The position numbers and the translations under genes were made by a program. 64,000 bases of DNA, from the NCBI RefSeq assembly GCF_055900595.2, contig NZ_CM148325.1, one strand, 5' to 3'. The notes under the pieces are model-generated. The model was not told the origin of the DNA, ran no database searches, and worked only from the letters and a program-made list of their open reading frames with translations. Position 1 is the stretch's first letter; every line of letters starts with the position of its first letter. Shown here piece after piece: positions 582-8,855 of this stretch.

Positions 582-1040
582 TTAGCGCCCGGAGATTGGC
601 GGGACGAATACGACGCCCATATCCCACGGTTGTTCAATCCAGGTATCTTGTGGGATATCAACAACATAATCATCAACCAGCGGACGACCTGCCGGTTTAG
701 CGAAGATGGTGACAAAGTGCGCTTTTGGATACATTTCACGAATCGCAACCGCAGTACCGCCGGTATCCACCAGATCATCAATAACGATGAAGCCTTCGCC
801 ATCGCCTTCTGCGCGTTTCAGCACTTTAAGCTCGCGCTGGTTGTCGTGATCGTAGCTGGAAATACAAACGGTATCGACATGACGAATACCCAGTTCACGC
901 GCCAGTAACGCACCCGGTACCAGACCGCCACGGCTTACGGCAATAATGCCTTTCCATTGTTCAGAAGGCATCAGTCGGCTTGCGAGTTTACGTGCATGGA
1001 TCTGCAACATGTCCCAGGTGACGATGTATTTTTCGCTCAT
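582..1040 (-). CDS. gpt: Xanthine-guanine phosphoribosyltransferase
   Basis: 152-aa [34 protein letters not shown]... recognised as Gpt; PRTase motif [11 protein letters not shown]. Confidence 0.95.
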
Positions 1041-1300: not shown

Positions 1301-2758
1301 GTGTCTGAACTGTCTCAATTATCTCCACAGCCGCTGTGGGATATTTTTGCCAAAATCTGTTCTATTCCTCACCCGTCCTATCATGAAGAGCAACTCGCTG
1401 AATACATTGTTGGTTGGGCAAAAGAGAAAGGTTTCCATGTCGAACGCGATCAGGTGGGTAATATCCTGATTCGTAAACCTGCTACCGCAGGTATGGAAAA
1501 TCGTAAACCAGTCGTCTTGCAGGCCCACCTCGATATGGTGCCGCAGAAAAATAACGATACCGTGCACGATTTCACTAAAGATCCTATCCAGCCTTATATT
1601 GATGGCGAATGGGTTAAAGCGCGCGGTACCACGCTGGGTGCGGATAACGGCATTGGTATGGCCTCTGCACTGGCGGTTCTGGCTGACGAAAACGTGGTTC
1701 ACGGCCCGCTGGAAGTGCTGCTAACCATGACCGAAGAAGCCGGTATGGACGGGGCGTTCGGCTTACAGAGCAACTGGTTGCAGGCTGACATTCTGATTAA
1801 CACCGACTCCGAAGAAGAAGGTGAAATCTACATGGGTTGTGCTGGGGGTATCGACTTCACCTCCAACCTGCATTTAGATCGTGAAGCGGTTCCAGCTGGT
1901 TTTGAAACCTTCAAGTTAACCTTAAAAGGTCTGAAAGGCGGTCACTCCGGCGGTGAAATCCACGTTGGCCTGGGTAATGCCAACAAACTGCTGGTGCGCT
2001 TCCTGGCGGGTCATGCGGAAGAGCTGGACCTGCGCCTTATCGATTTCAACGGTGGCACACTGCGTAACGCCATCCCGCGTGAAGCCTTTGCGACCATCGC
2101 TGTCGCAGCTGATAAAGTCGACGCCCTGAAAACGCTGGTGAATACCTATCAGGAGATCCTGAAAAACGAGCTGGCAGAGAAAGAGAAAAATCTGGCATTG
2201 CTGCTGGACTCTGTTGCGAACGATAAAGCTGCCCTGATTGCGAAATCTCGCGATACCTTTATTCGTCTGCTGAACGCCACCCCGAACGGTGTGATCCGCA
2301 ACTCCGACGTGGCAAAAGGCGTGGTTGAAACCTCACTGAACGTCGGTGTCGTGACCATGACCGACAACAACGTAGAAATTCACTGCCTGATCCGTTCTCT
2401 GATCGACAGCGGTAAAGACTACGTGGTGAGCATGCTGGATTCGCTGGGTAAACTGGCAGGCGCGAAAACCGAAGCGAAAGGCGCATATCCTGGCTGGCAG
2501 CCGGACGCTAACTCTCCGGTGATGCATCTGGTACGTGAAACCTATCAGCGTCTGTTCAACAAGACGCCGAACATCCAGATTATTCACGCGGGTCTGGAAT
2601 GTGGCCTGTTTAAAAAGCCGTATCCGGAAATGGACATGGTTTCTATCGGGCCAACCATCACCGGTCCACACTCTCCGGATGAGCAAGTTCACATCGAAAG
2701 CGTAGGCCATTACTGGACACTGCTGACAGAACTGCTGAAAGAAATTCCGGCGAAGTAA
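1301..2758 (+). CDS. pepD: Cytosol non-specific dipeptidase (aminoacyl-histidine dipeptidase)
   Basis: 485-aa ORF recognised as PepD (M20 family); divergent from gpt as in E. coli. Confidence 0.95.
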   Translation: MSELSQLSPQPLWDIFAKICSIPHPSYHEEQLAEYIVGWAKEKGFHVERDQVGNILIRKPATAGMENRKPVVLQAHLDMVPQKNNDTVHDFTKDPIQPYIDGEWVKARGTTLGADNGIGMASALAVLADENVVHGPLEVLLTMTEEAGMDGAFGLQSNWLQADILINTDSEEEGEIYMGCAGGIDFTSNLHLDREAVPAGFETFKLTLKGLKGGHSGGEIHVGLGNANKLLVRFLAGHAEELDLRLIDFNGGTLRNAIPREAFATIAVAADKVDALKTLVNTYQEILKNELAEKEKNLALLLDSVANDKAALIAKSRDTFIRLLNATPNGVIRNSDVAKGVVETSLNVGVVTMTDNNVEIHCLIRSLIDSGKDYVVSMLDSLGKLAGAKTEAKGAYPGWQPDANSPVMHLVRETYQRLFNKTPNIQIIHAGLECGLFKKPYPEMDMVSIGPTITGPHSPDEQVHIESVGHYWTLLTELLKEIPAK

Positions 2759-2770
2759 TTTTTTGATTTG

Positions 2771-2805
2771 CTGCCGGATGGCGTTTGATCGCCTTCCGGC
2801 AGTTT
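2771..2805. terminator. Putative bidirectional hairpin between convergent pepD and prfH
   Basis: Inverted repeat ctgccgga...tccggcag immediately after the pepD stop; weak T-run. Confidence 0.35.
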
Positions 2806-2814
2806 CATCCTTTC

Positions 2815-3429
2815 TTATCCTTCGATAAAAGCCATCCCTGTAAACGTCCGTCGCGGGTTGCCACGTTCAATCTGGTGATGGAACATTCGCCGCTGCGATT
2901 TCAGCGCCGCGCTATTTTCCTGTTGCTGTTGCTCCAGCTTCCAGGCAATCAGCAATCGCGCCAGCCGTTTGTTGGCATGTTGGCTGCGCTCTGACTGAAC
3001 CTTCACGCTAATCCCGGATGCCAGATGCGTGGCGCGTACCGCCGAGTCGGTTTTATTGACATGTTGACCGCCCGGCCCCGACGAACGCAGCGTCTCATAA
3101 TGGATCGCATCGGATTGCTCCTGCTCATCTGCAGTAAAACGCCCAATGCCCAGAAACCAGTTTTTGCGCCCATGATGAGGGCGATACGGACTCGGACAAA
3201 TCCACTGGATAGTGCCACACCAGCTTTCGCTTAGTGCCCATGCGTTGTCGCCATCAAGTGAAACCAGCGCCGAACGCAGTGTGTCAGAGTAGCGACCCGT
3301 TTCTGTTTCCAGCACCGTTACCGCGACGTCTTGTCGGGCAGCTTCTTTAATCAGCCTGTCCAGTGCCTTTTTCACTGCGAGACAACATTCTTCCGGCCCC
3401 TGAGCTGAGGAGAGTTGTAGCAAGATCAT
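2815..3429 (-). CDS. prfH: Peptide chain release factor homolog PrfH (full-length form)
   Basis: ORF contains a release-factor domain with the GGQ motif ([16 protein letters not shown]); likely start at the internal Met ([14 protein letters not shown]...) giving ~204 aa; start overlaps the rtcB stop. Confidence 0.85.
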
Positions 3430-4565
3430 CCTTTTTTCCCTCCACTGTTTTTGAGCGTCAGCACCGGACGCAGTCGCGCGACAGGAATAATTAAACCGGC
3501 CTGCACCAGACATTGCACCACACTTTCAGCCGATTTATAGGCTTGTGGCGCTTCTTCAAAGATGAGTTGTTTATCGCGACAAATTACCCGACTGCCAAGT
3601 TCAGTACGTGAGAGTTGCGTCGCCGTGTATTTCGCTGCCAGACGCCCTTTACACTCGGTGCGCCCCCATTTACGCCCTGCCCCATGCGCCAGTGAGTGAA
3701 GCGTTTTTTCGTTCGCAACAGGTTTAACCAGCCAGGAGTAATCACCGCGTGAACCGGGAATAATCACCAGACCGTTGTCATCCGGCGTAGCCCCTTTACG
3801 GTGTAACCATCCTTGTTGATCGCCGATTCGACATGCGCTAACAAAGTTATGCGCCACATCCAGAACCGAATTTCCGTTGGCCTTAACTTGTTGCATTATG
3901 CGCAAAGCGATCAGCTGGCGATTAATACGCGCAAACGCCAGCGCATCATCATGTTCCGCAATATAACTTAGCGCGTCGTCACTGCCTTCCGGCAAACCAT
4001 GATGCGAAAACGAGGCAATATGCCGCTGTAAAATAGACTGCCCTAAACCACGCGAGCCGCTATGGACCAGCAGTTGCAGATGCTGCGCATCCAGACCTGA
4101 CAGTGCAAACAGTTCCGCGTCGATGATTTGATCAATCTGTTGCAGTTCTGCAAAGTGGTTACCGCCACCGATAGAGCCAAGCGCGCAGCGCCACGGATGC
4201 TGTGCAAACGCTGACGGCAGGTTTTCCTCCAGCCAGCTTTCTTCAGCAACGTCATCCAGCGCAGATAATCGCTTTTCAAACTTATCGGCGTTGTATTTAC
4301 GCGCGAGAATATCTGTTTGCCATAGCGCCATACCGCAGCCGATATCATTGCCGACCAGTGCCGGGTAAAAACGGCCTACGGAGAAGAACGCTGCGCCAAT
4401 CGGATAGCCGCGTCCGGGGTGCAAATCTGGCATCCCCACTACGCGCTGCATGTTGGGTAAATTTGCCGTGGTGTGTAATTGTTGGATCGCTGAACTCTCG
4501 ATCCACAGGTCATCAGATGCGATGGTAAATACCGCATCGGATAAGGGACGAATATATTTGCCCAT
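3426..4565 (-). CDS. rtcB: RtcB-family RNA ligase (RtcB2-type, paired with prfH)
   Basis: 379-aa [26 protein letters not shown]...[17 protein letters not shown]... recognised as RtcB family; translationally coupled to prfH. Confidence 0.85.
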
Positions 4566-4810
4566 GTATCATTCCATTTATACTCGTCATACTTCAAGTT
4601 GCATGTACTGCGACTCGAATTATTTAGAGTATATAAATATAAAAATCAGGAAATGGCAGACGAATCCAGGGCAAGAAAAAAAGAATTAATCCTGGAAAGG
4701 TCTGCAAAGAGTCATTGATAAAGGATTTTTCATGATTTACCTCCTTGCAGTTTGTGGAATAAGAAAACGCGCACATATTAGGCGGGCGTTATTTTCATTG
4801 CAAGCTGGAT

Positions 4811-5263
4811 TTAATGTTGCGGTTTATATCGCATATGAAAATTAGTAAACCACGCTCCCCGGCATTCAACGCGTTGCTGCTTAACTGTCTGAAAACCATA
4901 ACGTTCAAAAAAGGGTTTTGCGGTTATGCTGGCGTCCACCGTAAGTTCGGATTCAGACTTAATCAAAGGTTTTAACAAAGCGCTGGCAACCCCACGGCGA
5001 GTATATTCAGGGTCAACAAATAACATATCGATATAATGTTCAATGCGGGAAATAAAACCAACCGGTTGTGCATTAATCACAGCAACTCGCACTTGTGATT
5101 TCGCGAGTTGCTCTTTCCAGCGAGATTCGTCAATCTGCGCCCAGGCGGCAATTTGTTGTGGTGAATAATGCTGACTGGCGGTCATCGTAACCGCTCTAAT
5201 GAAAATAGCGCATAGTTGCTGAAAATCGCAAGGCTGATAGTTTCTTATTTGTATGTTATTCAT
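4811..5263 (-). CDS. yafP: GNAT family N-acetyltransferase YafP
   Basis: 150-aa ORF recognised as YafP; start overlaps dinB stop (operon). Confidence 0.9.
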
Positions 5264-6315
5264 AATCCCAGCACCAGTTGTCTTTCCATTTGCGGATCCA
5301 GCAACGTCACATGCAGCCCCACCAGCCGCACACCGCGCCCGCCACGGCGTTCATCCCAGGTTTTACGCGCAGTGGCGATCAAGTCAGCTTTATTCAGCCG
5401 CGGCCAGACGTGTTCCTGGGTGGTTTGCTGAAAATCGTCGAACTTTAATTTCACCCCCTGGCGGGCAATCAGTAAATCAGGTTTTACCTTTGCCAGACGA
5501 CGTTCAAGTTCCGGGTACAACCGCTCGATGATCGCTTCACATTCAGACCAGTGATGAATATCTTCCGCCATGGTGCGTTCTACACCGACGGATTTTCGCA
5601 ACCTTTCGCTGTTAACGTCGCGCTCGTCAATGCCCTGGCTACGCTCCCACAAAATGCGGCCAAATTTGCCAAAGCGTTTAAGCAACGTCACCAGATCACA
5701 CTTTTGTACATCGCCACAGGTTCGTAGCCCCATCGCTTCCAGTTTTGCCGCCGAGACTTTGCCGACACCGGGAATTTTTGCCAGCGGTAAGGTTTGCAGA
5801 AATGCCGGAACTTCTGCCGGCGTAATCACAAACTGACCGTTGGGTTTATTCATGTCTGAGGCGATTTTGGCGAGAAACTTGACCGGCGCAACGCCCGCAG
5901 ACGCCGTCAGTTGCAGCTCGTTGAAGATCGTCTGGCGGATTTCCTGAGCGATAAGGGTCGCAGAGCCGTGGCAATGGACACTATCGGTGACGTCGAGATA
6001 GGCTTCATCCAGTGACAGCGGCTCAATACGCGATGTGTAGCGAGAGAAGATTTCGCGGATATGATTTGACGCTTCTTTGTAGGCGTCAAAGCGCCCTGGA
6101 AGCAAGGTGAGATGCGGACACAGTTTGAGCGCCATGCCGGTTGGCATTGCGCTACGCACGCCAAATTTACGCGCGGGATAATTGGCGGTGCTGATCACCC
6201 CCCGGCGTTCGCGGCTGCCGCCAATAGCAATAGGGATATCGCGCAGGGCGGGATTGTCGCGCATCTCCACCGCGGCGAAAAAGCAGTCCATATCCACATG
6301 AATGATTTTACGCAT
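5260..6315 (-). CDS. dinB: DNA polymerase IV (Y-family translesion polymerase)
   Basis: 351-aa [36 protein letters not shown]... recognised as DinB. Confidence 0.95.
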
Positions 6316-6385: not shown

Positions 6386-7120
6386 TTAACGCGTTCGCTG
6401 CGAAAGCACCTGCTGCTTATCCAGCTTTTTCACCAGCGGCTGCACCACCTTATCCCCATGCTGACCAAAATATTGATACAACGTATCGGACGCGCTTTTG
6501 GTGAGCACCATAATCTCAATGCGCCGGTTACCCGCGCTTTGTGGGTTTTTGGCATCCAGCAGCATCTGGTCCGCCATCGCGCTTACCTGCATCACTTTAT
6601 CTTCCGGCATCCCGGCGTCTTCCAGCACCCGACGGGCCGAGAGCGCGCGGTCACCCGAAAGGTTCCAGTTGTTGTAGATATTGCTTTTATAGGCCATCGC
6701 ATCGGTATGCCCGGTAATAATAATTTTGTTGTCGAGCGAGTCGAATACCGGCGCGAGTTCCACCAGCAGCGTTTTAAAGAACGGCATAATCTTCGCGCTG
6801 CCGCGTTCAAACATATTGCGGTTCTGGTCATCTTTAATCAGCACGCGTAATCCCTGCGGGACAATCTCCATCTCCAGATTGGCTTCCATATGCGCATCGC
6901 GGGCGATGGTGTTGATACTGGTCGCCAGCTCGCCAAGCTCAGTGGCAGACTTCTTCTTCACTAGCGCCGTTTTCTCGTTGACGTCGCGGGCTTTTTTCTC
7001 CGTCTCTTCCGGCACCGCCACGGTGGCAGGTTTCGGCGGATGCGTCGGGCTGATTTTATTTAACGGCGACAGCCCGCCGCCATTGAAAATCGACTGCCCG
7101 TGCAGCGCGGCGATAATGCT
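6386..7120 (-). pseudogene. lafU: MotB-like lateral flagellar motor protein LafU, 5'-truncated remnant
   Basis: ORF has a MotB/OmpA-like C-terminal peptidoglycan-binding region but lacks the N-terminal transmembrane segment; the ORF-track N-terminus is antisense read-through into lfhA'; boundary approximate. Confidence 0.7.
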
Positions 7121-7139
7121 TTCACGCTCAGATTTACTA

Positions 7140-8855
7140 ACACTGTTGACAATCAACTTTATTGTCGTCACCAAAGGGGCCGAGCGTATTTCCGAGGTTT
7201 CTGCCCGTTTTACCCTGGACGCGATGCCCGGCAAGCAGATGGCGATTGACGCCGATCTTAACGCCGGGTTGATCAACCAGGCGCAGGCGCAGACCCGCCG
7301 CAAAGATGTTGCCAGCGAGGCCGATTTCTACGGCGCGATGGACGGGGCATCGAAGTTTGTGCGCGGGGATGCCATCGCCGGGATGATGATTCTGGCGATC
7401 AACCTGATTGGCGGCGTTTGTATCGGGATCTTCAAATACAACCTGAGCGCCGATGCCGCCTTCCAGCAGTATGTGCTGATGACCATCGGTGACGGCCTGG
7501 TGGCGCAGATCCCTTCCCTGCTGCTCTCCACCGCGGCGGCGATTATCGTCACCCGCGTCAGCGACAACGGCGATATCGCCCATGATGTGCGCCACCAGCT
7601 GCTGGCAAGCCCGTCGGTGCTCTACACCGCCACCGGGATTATGTTCGTGCTGGCGGTGGTGCCGGGAATGCCGCACTTCCCGTTCCTGATGTTCAGCGCC
7701 TTGCTTGGCTTTACCGGCTGGCGAATGAGCAAACGCCCGCAGGCGGCGGAGGCGGAAGAGAAAAGCCTCGAAACGCTGACCCGCACAATCACTGAAACCA
7801 GCGAGCAACAGGTCAGTTGGGAAACCATTCCGCTGATCGAGCCCATCAGTTTAAGCCTCGGTTACAAACTGGTGGCGCTGGTGGATAAAGCGCAGGGCAA
7901 CCCGCTCACCCAGCGTATTCGCGGCGTGCGGCAGGTGATTTCCGACGGCAACGGCGTGCTGCTGCCGGAGATCCGCATTCGCGAAAACTTCCGCCTCAAG
8001 CCCAGTCAGTACGCCATTTTCATCAACGGCATTAAGGCCGATGAAGCGGATATTCCGGCGGATAAGCTGATGGCTCTGCCCTCCAGTGAAACCTACGGTG
8101 AGATTGACGGCGTGCTGGGGAACGACCCGGCGTACGGGATGCCGGTGACCTGGATCCAGCCTGCGCAGAAAGCGAAGGCGCTGAATATGGGGTATCAGGT
8201 GATCGACAGCGCCAGCGTAATTGCCACGCATGTGAATAAGATTGTGCGCAGCTATATTCCTGATTTGTTTAACTATGACGATATTACTCAGCTGCATAAC
8301 CGTTTGTCGTCGATGGCACCGCGCCTGGCGGAGGATTTGAGTGCGGCGCTGAATTACAGCCAGTTGCTGAAAGTGTACCGGGCACTGCTGACCGAAGGCG
8401 TTTCCCTGCGCGATATCGTCACCATCGCCACCGTGCTGGTCGCCAGTAGCACCGTCACCAAAGATCATATTCTGCTGGCGGCCGATGTGCGCCTGGCACT
8501 GCGGCGCAGCATTACCCATCCGTTCGTTCGCAAGCAGGAGCTGGCGGTGTATACGCTGAATAATGAACTGGAAAATCTGCTGACCAACGTGGTGAATCAG
8601 GCGCAACAGGGCGGCAAAGTGATGCTTGATAGCGTGCCAGTGGACCCGAATATGCTCAACCAGTTCCAGAGTACGATGCCGCAGGTAAAAGAGCAGATGA
8701 AAGCGGCGGGGAAAGACCCGGTGCTGCTGGTGCCGCCGCAGCTGCGCCCGTTGCTGGCGCGTTATGCGAAGTTGTTTGCGCCGGGGTTGCATGTGCTGTC
8801 GTATAACGAAGTGCCGGATGAGCTGGAGTTGAAGATAATGGGGGCGTTGATGTAG
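7140..8855 (+). pseudogene. lfhA: FlhA-like lateral flagellar export protein LfhA, N-terminally truncated remnant
   Basis: FlhA homology begins mid-protein at NFIVVTKGAERISEVSARFTLDAMPGKQMAIDADLNAG (about nt 7146); upstream part of the 709-aa ORF is not FlhA-like; boundary approximate. Confidence 0.75.

Follow-up and report, generated by a model that had tools for sequence, protein, structure and literature searches.

A region of the window, by which we mean the whole stretch of 64,000 nucleotides that was analysed (contig NZ_CM148325.1 of NCBI RefSeq assembly GCF_055900595.2), is very probably an RtcB2-PrfH operon for ribosome rescue and repair that is complete, translationally coupled, and of the type found in E. 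coli ATCC 25922. Since the function of this pair was established in papers that appeared from 2022 to 2026, the rtcB2-prfH finding was already known; the module is common and the operon itself adds nothing new. The new part is that a conserved leader of the PA5471.1 type precedes rtcB2-prfH across Gammaproteobacteria, which should be useful to those who work on the regulation of RtcB2-PrfH. This leader joins two literatures that are not connected in the papers examined, namely, that on E. coli RtcB2-PrfH, where regulation is unaddressed, and that on Pseudomonas MexXY, where PA5471.1 is seen as a peculiarity of efflux regulation.

The rtcB2-prfH operon and its two proteins

The window is E. coli chromosome. 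The gene order is gpt, pepD, prfH, rtcB, yafP, and dinB, followed by lafU/flhA remnants, and the features around the operon are as follows.

582-1040, minus strand: gpt
1301-2758, plus strand: pepD
2771..2802, no strand assigned: strong hairpin between the convergent prfH and pepD (-25.1 kcal/mol, z = -6.8)
2815..3429, minus strand: prfH, 204 aa, release factor H, GGQ at 120-122, without RF domain 1
3426..3429, minus strand: ATGA overlap of the rtcB2 stop TGA (3428-3426) and the prfH ATG (3429-3427), read from the sequence
3426..4565, minus strand: rtcB2, 379 aa, PrfH-coupled RtcB-family 3'-phosphate/5'-OH RNA ligase
4811-5263, minus strand: yafP
5260-6315, minus strand: dinB

The open reading frame that contains prfH spans 2815-3513 on the minus strand with its first ATG at 3513, and the true start is the ATG at 3429. 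When the reading frames and starts were re-read from the sequence, the coordinates that the initial annotation had given for rtcB-prfH were found to be exact. The ATGA overlap couples the two genes translationally. An overlap of this type, with rtcB2 directly upstream of prfH, was also found in 12 other loci, and a stop-start overlap of rtcB and prfH has been described as a trait of the family (PMC1586002). The synteny dinB-(yafP)-rtcB2-prfH-pepD is kept in Salmonella, Kosakonia, Cronobacter, and Entomohabitans. The hairpin at 2771..2802 has a T-rich tail only on the plus strand, that is, on the pepD side, and for prfH it forms a 3' stem-loop that has no U run.

PrfH scored 328 bits against the NCBIfam model TIGR03072 (release_prfH), with residues 2-201 on model positions 1-200 of 200, where the curated cut-off is 166.65 bits, and its Pfam domain is RF-1 (PF00472). 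The prfA and prfB models gave 81-92 bits on PrfH, far under their cut-offs, and the alignment to RF2 chains does not begin before about residue 115. This 204-aa protein has no RF domain 1, and its homology to RF1/RF2 is confined to domains 2-4. PrfH aligned from 1-204 to 1-204 of chain 8 of PDB 7SA4, which is the cryo-EM structure of E. coli PrfH on the damaged ribosome, with 200 of the 204 residues identical. The four differences from this chain are K20R, A31T, V56I, and H110R, the window protein having K20, A31, V56, and H110 where the EcPrfH of ATCC 25922 type differs, and none of them falls at a ribosome-contact residue. All of the published contact residues are kept (A9, G11, P12, R52, S53, R83, H85, H86, R88, K89, N90, R181, H184, R189, and Q122). 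In EcPrfH these contact the A1493 3'-phosphate, h18, S12, C1914, and C1054 (PMC9304027 section 8). The residues of the pocket with which the cleaved A1493 3'-phosphate and h18/S12/H69 are read (R83, H85, H86, R88, K89, N90, R52, S53, R181, H184, and R189) are identical in the window PrfH. Its GGQ is G120, G121, and Q122, and Q122 is a residue of EcPrfH that was mutated in PMC9304027. From the identity of 200/204 to EcPrfH, the window PrfH would be expected to release peptides only on damaged 70S ribosomes.

RtcB2 matched NF007153 with 642 bits over residues 1-378 of 379 (cut-off 407) and TIGR03073 (release_rtcB) with 623 bits over its full length (cut-off 272), and its Pfam domain is RtcB (PF01139). 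The metal-ligand and His-GMP motifs are present, namely, D74 and C77 (NDIGCG), H137 (GGNHF), H168 (VHSGSRG), H239 (AHNF), and H294 (AHGAGR), and they align to the RtcB proteins of T. thermophilus and P. horikoshii. The roles of these residues as metal ligands and GMP histidine we take to be those assigned through archaeal RtcB residue numbering. E. coli RtcB1, whose rtcBA operon is under RtcR/sigma54 control, shares the Pfam domain PF01139 and the ligation chemistry with RtcB2, but it has no prfH partner and belongs to different NCBIfam models. RtcB1 repairs tRNA and not the ColE3-cut 30S subunit, and the substrates of RtcB1 and RtcB2 are mutually exclusive (PMC9304027 section 9; PMC13166195). 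H294 is the catalytic histidine that was mutated to inactivate EcRtcB2 (PMC9304027 section 10). The PDB chains nearest to the window RtcB2 are distant RtcBs and not an RtcB2, and its 12-20 substitutions relative to the CFT073 and O104:H4 proteins count against the operon reading.

In the initial annotation both genes looked full-length (379 aa, and about 204 aa with GGQ), and this was borne out by the full-length matches to the family models and by alignment to the intact alleles of CFT073 and O104:H4, in which neither gene has a gap, a frameshift, or an internal stop. The proteins are of equal length to those of CFT073 and O104:H4 and have only the terminal stop; identity is 98.0-98.5% for PrfH and 94.7-96.8% for RtcB2, the latter with 12 substitutions and no gaps relative to CFT073. 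In the gene comparisons CFT073 was used as a stand-in for ATCC 25922, and CFT073 PrfH is identical to the 7SA4 chain. On the basis of 96.8% identity to the CFT073 protein, taken in place of ATCC 25922 RtcB2, the window RtcB2 would be expected to religate 16S rRNA cut at A1493/G1494 and not tRNA.

Compared to the EcRtcB2-EcPrfH system of ATCC 25922 (Tian 2022, PMC9304027; Maviza 2022, PMC9223846; PMC13166195; PDB 7SA4), the window has in common the species, chromosomal site, gene order, and overlap; relative to the CFT073-type sequence of that system its DNA is about 95% identical, with a short ERIC insert upstream and a G to A change in the rtcB2 ribosome-binding site (RBS). The pair was described in the initial annotation as one that acts on ribosomes damaged in 16S rRNA, for example by nucleases of the colicin E3 type, and this agrees with PMC9304027 and PMC9223846. 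The only substrate of PrfH is the 70S ribosome that ColE3-CT or CdiA-CT(ECL) has cleaved between A1493 and G1494, RtcB2 religates the 30S subunit and not tRNA, and together the two proteins undo the toxicity of E3-like toxins (PMC9304027). In E. coli ATCC 25922 the operon gives protection against colicin E3 in vivo (PMC9223846), and PrfH speeds up the repair of translating ribosomes (PMC13166195). Near-identity leads us to expect the same activity of the window pair. Thus, a nuclease of the ColE3 or CdiA-CT(ECL) type would cut 16S rRNA between A1493 and G1494 and stall the 70S ribosome, and PrfH, a release-factor paralogue without domain 1 that would not read codons, would bind in the A site. 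It would recognise the cleaved, 3'-phosphorylated A1493, and its GGQ (Q122) would hydrolyse the peptidyl-tRNA, which would allow the subunits to come apart. RtcB2, as a GTP/Mn-dependent ligase with a His294-GMP intermediate, would then reseal the rRNA of the 30S subunit. If so, the strain should tolerate toxins of the colicin E3 and CdiA-CT(ECL) types better than K-12.

Intact and degraded copies of the locus in E. coli

In MG1655, ykfJ and prfH are annotated as pseudogenes, and alignment to the window showed a single deletion of 1027 bp across both genes in K-12, corresponding to window positions 4358..3332 and bounded by the imperfect 7-nt repeat CCCGGCA/CCCGACA. The deletion takes out rtcB from codon 70 to codon 379 and prfH up to nt 98 and fuses rtcB codon 69 to prfH nt 99. 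This lesion had been described before (Baranov 2006, PMC1586002; Tian 2022, PMC9304027 section 5), and together these data bear out the statement in the initial annotation that the K-12 locus is degraded. K-12 shares the site and the leader with the window, its uORF being MTNPLSMTLCRPFQD, and it differs in having a full-length ERIC upstream and yafNO between dinB and yafP.

The same annotation overrated the rarity of an intact pair. Among 5,426 complete E. coli genomes, 5415 had any match to the locus, and it was full-length, with at least 80% of the coding region covered, in 2674 of the 5415 (about 49%); intact copies in CFT073, 042, and UTI89 were noted as early as 2006 (PMC1586002). In the remaining genomes the coverage is 42% (the class of the K-12 type) or 32% (a shorter class). 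The exact window allele was found in 8 of the 5,426 genomes. DNA identity of the window locus to other E. coli alleles is about 94-95% (94.1-95.4% to CFT073 and O104:H4). Horizontal replacement of the operon was considered as the cause of this divergence and was ruled out because the flanking yafP and dinB are just as divergent (93.8-96.9%). Therefore, the window belongs to a divergent lineage and does not carry a replaced operon.

It could be argued that the pair, although intact in sequence, is silent or decaying in this lineage, a cryptic remnant that is heading for a loss of the K-12 type and provides no defence against toxins. A deletion of 1027 bp or larger is present in about half of the complete E. 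coli genomes, an IS1 sits inside rtcB in 2 of the 8 genomes with the identical locus, the rtcB2 RBS motif of the window has the G to A change, and prfH is split in Intestinirhabdus. The first two of these observations, the insertions and the loss of the operon in half of E. coli, indicate that selection on the operon is weak or episodic. Against decay in this lineage are the window genes themselves, which have no stops, frameshifts, or indels, their protein identities to CFT073 and O104:H4, which equal or exceed the DNA identity, the catalytic and contact residues, all of which are kept, and the conservation of the leader and its helices. With this evidence we consider a silent remnant to be quite improbable, and an operon with working genes is the reading that we retain.

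A conserved leader upstream of rtcB2

The spacer between yafP and rtcB2 is more conserved than the surrounding genes in a comparison of four E. coli lineages. The region 4649-4807 upstream of rtcB2 has a promoter-like site, a strong SD, a uORF of 15 codons, and covarying helices. The elements of the leader and of the sequence up to the rtcB2 start, all on the minus strand, are given below.

4796..4807: -35-like TTGCAA (4803..4798), just past the yafP stop, from comparison
4772..4783: -10-like TAATAT (4780..4775), from comparison
4686..4746: leader SD AAGGAGGT (4746..4739) and, 5 nt downstream of it, the 15-codon uORF MKNPLSMTLCRPFQD with its stop (4733..4686)
4750..4741 with 4711..4702: P0 helix, from MFE folds only
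4705..4700 with 4661..4656: P1 outer helix GCAGAC/GUCUGC, from RNAalifold and covariation
4695..4691 with 4670..4666: P1 inner helix CCAGG/CCUGG, from RNAalifold and covariation
4656..4649: anti-SD CCAUUUCC, pairing with the rtcB2 RBS GGAAUGG, from RNAalifold and covariation
4579..4633: short ERIC-type repeat between the leader and the rtcB2 RBS
4563..4575: rtcB2 ribosome-binding region GGAAUGAUAC-AUG, the proposed partner of the anti-SD

A sigma-70 consensus scan of 2600-5300 reported no promoter. The pair TTGCAA-17-TAATAT was missed because it agrees with the consensus at 8 of 12 positions and the scan needs 9 of 12; it was found by comparison instead. Upstream of the uORF, Escherichia, Klebsiella, Citrobacter, Proteus, Providencia, and Pseudomonas share the pattern TTGC-N-N, 17 nt, TA-N-N-AT, and in other E. 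coli the -10-like site is TAGTAT or TGGTAT. These features suggest a promoter-like site before the uORF that is constitutive in appearance.

The SD, ATG, length (13-16 codons), frame, and stop of the uORF are kept in 20 loci from Enterobacterales, Pseudomonas, and Tahibacter, and the N-terminal codons diverge. Upstream of rtcB2 this layout recurs in Klebsiella, Citrobacter, Salmonella, Kosakonia, Cronobacter, Entomohabitans, Intestinirhabdus, Limnobaculum, Proteus, Providencia, Pseudomonas, and Tahibacter, whose RtcB2 proteins are only 60-80% identical. Conservation of the peptide is fair in its C-terminal part, LCRPFQD/E, and the window has the C-terminal part with LC(R/G) of the PA5471.1 type. 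The motif GGAWUGG of the rtcB2 RBS is kept in nearly all loci; the G to A change of the window is at the last G of the motif and is lineage-specific. The ERIC repeat is absent in CFT073 and E. whittamii, is about 55 nt long in the window and in O104:H4, and in K-12 and L005 is present at full length, with 72 more alignment columns. An Rfam scan of 2700-5000 gave nothing at the gathering score; the best match, a partial isrH at 4577-4643 with 26.8 bits against a threshold of 45, is the ERIC repeat.

A covariance model of the leader had one match in the window (124.6 bits). On the covariance-model alignment, which represents about 15 independent lineages, 91.6% of the alignment cells are paired in the leader helices taken from RNAalifold, a count that leans towards the structure because the alignment was fitted to it; in controls with slid partners 20-49% of the cells pair. 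Eight pairs change on both sides, compared to 3.0 +/- 1.1 in shuffles (0/500). Compensatory P1 pairs are GCAGGC:GCCUGC in Limnobaculum and GCAGAU:AUCUGC in Entomohabitans. The 3' arm of P1 in Proteus was misaligned by both MAFFT and the covariance model, and when read by eye the Proteus helix is GCGGAC:GUCCGC, which is a further compensatory pair outside the counts. The anti-SD covaries with the RBS, being CCAUU:AAUGG in E. coli and Salmonella and CCAAU:AUUGG in Kosakonia, Limnobaculum, and others. Thus, the putative P1 and anti-SD helices are supported by covariation, and the candidate P0 helix by MFE folds and sequence conservation. P0 pairs the SD region of the uORF (CUGCAAGGAG) with uORF codons 8-10 (CUCUUUGCAG), and it excludes the outer helix of P1, whose 5' arm GCAGAC is uORF codons 10-11. 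When a ribosome footprint was placed on the start or early codons of the uORF, the folds gave full P1, and the rtcB2 RBS opened in some species and not in others. Neither a scan nor reading of the sequence of the minus strand from 4566-4686 revealed an intrinsic terminator; a U run begins 8-12 nt past P1.

The P. aeruginosa counterpart and the proposed switch

In P. aeruginosa the uORF MIQFSTLCRLRLA lies at -254 nt from armZ and has Q3 and F4, both of which are part of the description of PA5471.1 (PMC13041342). Since this uORF fits that description, the window uORF is, judged by its sequence, an orthologue of PA5471.1. Through the PA5471.1 leader peptide, ribosome stalling can induce armZ-PA5470 (PMC3516279, PMC12057347, PMC13041342), and the system goes back to Morita 2006 and 2009 as these are cited in PMC3516279. 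The genes that follow, armZ (PA5471) and PA5470 (prfH), are the same pair as in the window, the RtcB2-family protein being 60% identical to the window RtcB2. Both organisms have a leader ORF of 13-15 codons in the SD context GCAAAGGAGG, the pairing segments CUUUGCAGRC/GYCUGCC, and an RBS of the type AUGGAUUGG. They differ in that the Pseudomonas spacer is about 210 nt long, GC-rich, and described as terminator-bearing, with control by transcriptional attenuation, whereas the enteric spacer is 60-120 nt long and U-rich. ArmZ also has an additional role in Pseudomonas as the anti-repressor of MexZ. To our knowledge, E. coli has neither mexXY nor mexZ. As the enteric spacer has no evident terminator, control of translation is suggested, and the enteric leader may act on translation instead of by attenuation.

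Based on these comparisons, we favour by a small margin the proposal that rtcB2-prfH of Enterobacterales is switched on by a uORF of the PA5471.1 type that senses impaired ribosomes, including those damaged by ColE3, through a P0/P1/anti-SD switch that acts on rtcB2 translation and not through a terminator. Early stalling of a ribosome on the uORF would release CUUUGCAGAC from the P0 helix with the uORF SD region, and the freed segment could pair with GUCUGC to form P1. As modelled, this shift from P0 to P1 would weaken the anti-SD helix over the rtcB2 start, so that rtcB2 expression would rise when ribosomes are impaired. ColE3-damaged ribosomes have been reported to stall at start codons. 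The comparison of leaders offers a testable model of how cells detect ribosome damage. If the model is true, then the ribosome-repair system is self-sensing and the leader of Pseudomonas armZ, which a 2025 review called unique to MexXY, is an ancestral feature of all gammaproteobacterial rtcB2-prfH operons.

An alternative reading is that the module serves mainly to relieve intact ribosomes that are stalled by antibiotics or otherwise, and not those damaged by nucleases. The orthologue of the leader, PA5471.1, responds to ribosome-targeting drugs (PMC12057347, PMC13041342), PA5470 is reported in work cited in PMC12057347 to release azithromycin-stalled ribosomes, and one PrfH subfamily works on both damaged and intact stalled ribosomes (PMC12829566). 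That subfamily is the long PrfH of Capnocytophaga gingivalis (PDB 9mor/9mq4; PMC12829566), which is homologous to the window PrfH over residues 3-201 (E = 2.5e-39), but it has 231 aa in 9mor and a C-terminal extension, whereas the window protein is the short form of 204 aa and lacks the extension. Moreover, EcPrfH, from which the window protein differs at 4 of 204 residues, was active only on damaged ribosomes (PMC9304027), and the operon gave no protection from tRNA-targeting colicins (PMC9223846 section 2.4). For these reasons we regard a main role on intact ribosomes as unlikely and keep to nuclease damage as the main target. Still less probable, in our view, is that the upstream element does not regulate rtcB2 at all and is a free-standing gene for a small protein or the 3' UTR or terminator region of yafP. 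The element does start directly after the yafP stop codon and the C-terminal part of the peptide is fairly conserved, but the N-terminal half is not, and the conserved part shows F to S and P to H changes, with covariation in the stem nucleotides. In addition, the element accompanies rtcB2 without yafP in Proteus, Providencia, Limnobaculum, Pseudomonas, and Tahibacter, and the Pseudomonas orthologue has been demonstrated by experiment to be a cis-acting leader (PMC13041342). A leader that regulates rtcB2 is thus the reading that we prefer.

The E. coli RtcB2-PrfH papers that were searched do not mention a promoter, a leader, or regulation. Literature searches for the two leader peptide sequences returned no paper, and a search on prfH together with leader returned only Pseudomonas reviews and unrelated papers. 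As indirect evidence for induction of the genes behind the leader, a passage of PMC3516279 that cites Morita 2006 reports that ykfJ of K-12 is inducible by 4-azaleucine.

The leader of the rtcB2-prfH operon

The region upstream of rtcB2 and the start of this gene contain the following features.

4649-4807, minus strand: conserved leader with a promoter-like site, a Shine-Dalgarno (SD) sequence, an upstream open reading frame (uORF) and covarying helices
within 4649-4807, minus strand: SD sequence of the leader, AAGGAGGT
4733..4686, minus strand: uORF of 15 codons, MKNPLSMTLCRPFQD
4579-4633, minus strand: polymorphic ERIC-type repeat between the leader and rtcB2
4563-4575, minus strand: ribosome-binding motif of rtcB2, GGAAUGAUAC-AUG

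The leader is the orthologue of PA5471.1, the Pseudomonas aeruginosa leader peptide upstream of armZ, and leaders of this type were found 5' of rtcB2-prfH across the Gammaproteobacteria. The literature on E. coli RtcB2-PrfH that was searched makes no mention of a leader of rtcB2. Codon 2 of the uORF is AAA (K) in the window whereas elsewhere it is ACA (T). The ribosome-binding motif of rtcB2 is GGAAUGAUAC-AUG in the window and GGAAUGGUAC/U at the other loci examined from E. coli and Escherichia; this G to A change costs the proposed anti-SD helix its terminal pair.

Insertions and disrupted copies

The ERIC-type repeat varies in length: K-12 has it in full, the window and O104:H4 have a short form of about 55 nt, and CFT073 and E. 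whittamii lack it. An ERIC-like insert is present at the same position between the leader and rtcB2 in Klebsiella spallanzanii (locus L011), and in Intestinirhabdus (locus L021) about 170 nt are inserted within the loop of P1, a proposed helix of the leader. In Intestinirhabdus alba prfH is seemingly in two genes coding for 144 aa and 61 aa (L021 2637-3312), which suggests a frameshift or a stop, and rtcB2 is intact. An IS1A insertion splits rtcB in two of the eight genomes with a locus 100% identical to the window, namely, NZ_CM128596.1 and NZ_CM128594.1 (matches H31 and H32).

Flanks of the operon and the rest of the window

A very stable hairpin lies between the convergent genes prfH and pepD, with a T-rich tail on the pepD side only.

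2771-2802: hairpin of 32 nt, -25.1 kcal/mol, z = -6.8

In some E. coli, MFDS1022581 (L024 858-1382) and others (H14, H15, H48-H52), about 900 extra bp separate prfH from pepD. This segment carries two genes. One, directly downstream of prfH and in the same orientation, codes for a 174-aa YdjM-family (PF04307) 'metal-dependent hydrolase'; the other is a hypothetical gene of 93 aa on the opposite strand. Neither protein matched any NCBIfam family.

On the other side, dinB and yafP overlap directly in an ATGA-type junction at 5260-5263, as in CFT073 and O104:H4 but unlike K-12, in which the yafN-yafO toxin-antitoxin pair is inserted between them (L001 1506-2200).

The remaining content was read by correspondence with NZ_CP098223.1 959208-1009200 of strain Z0117EC0005, a correspondence established for the locus only. 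If the window follows this strain throughout, it would also carry arfB, which is a further ribosome-rescue factor with GGQ, an rrn operon followed closely by an IS200/IS605 tnpA, and a truncated ImpA-family T6SS gene adjoining tRNA-Asp. What is left of the lateral flagellar (Flag-2) cluster occupies about 6386-8855; the annotation of a strain with an identical locus shows an intact lafU and an flhA-like gene truncated at its N-terminus, with IS110/IS3 fragments after it.
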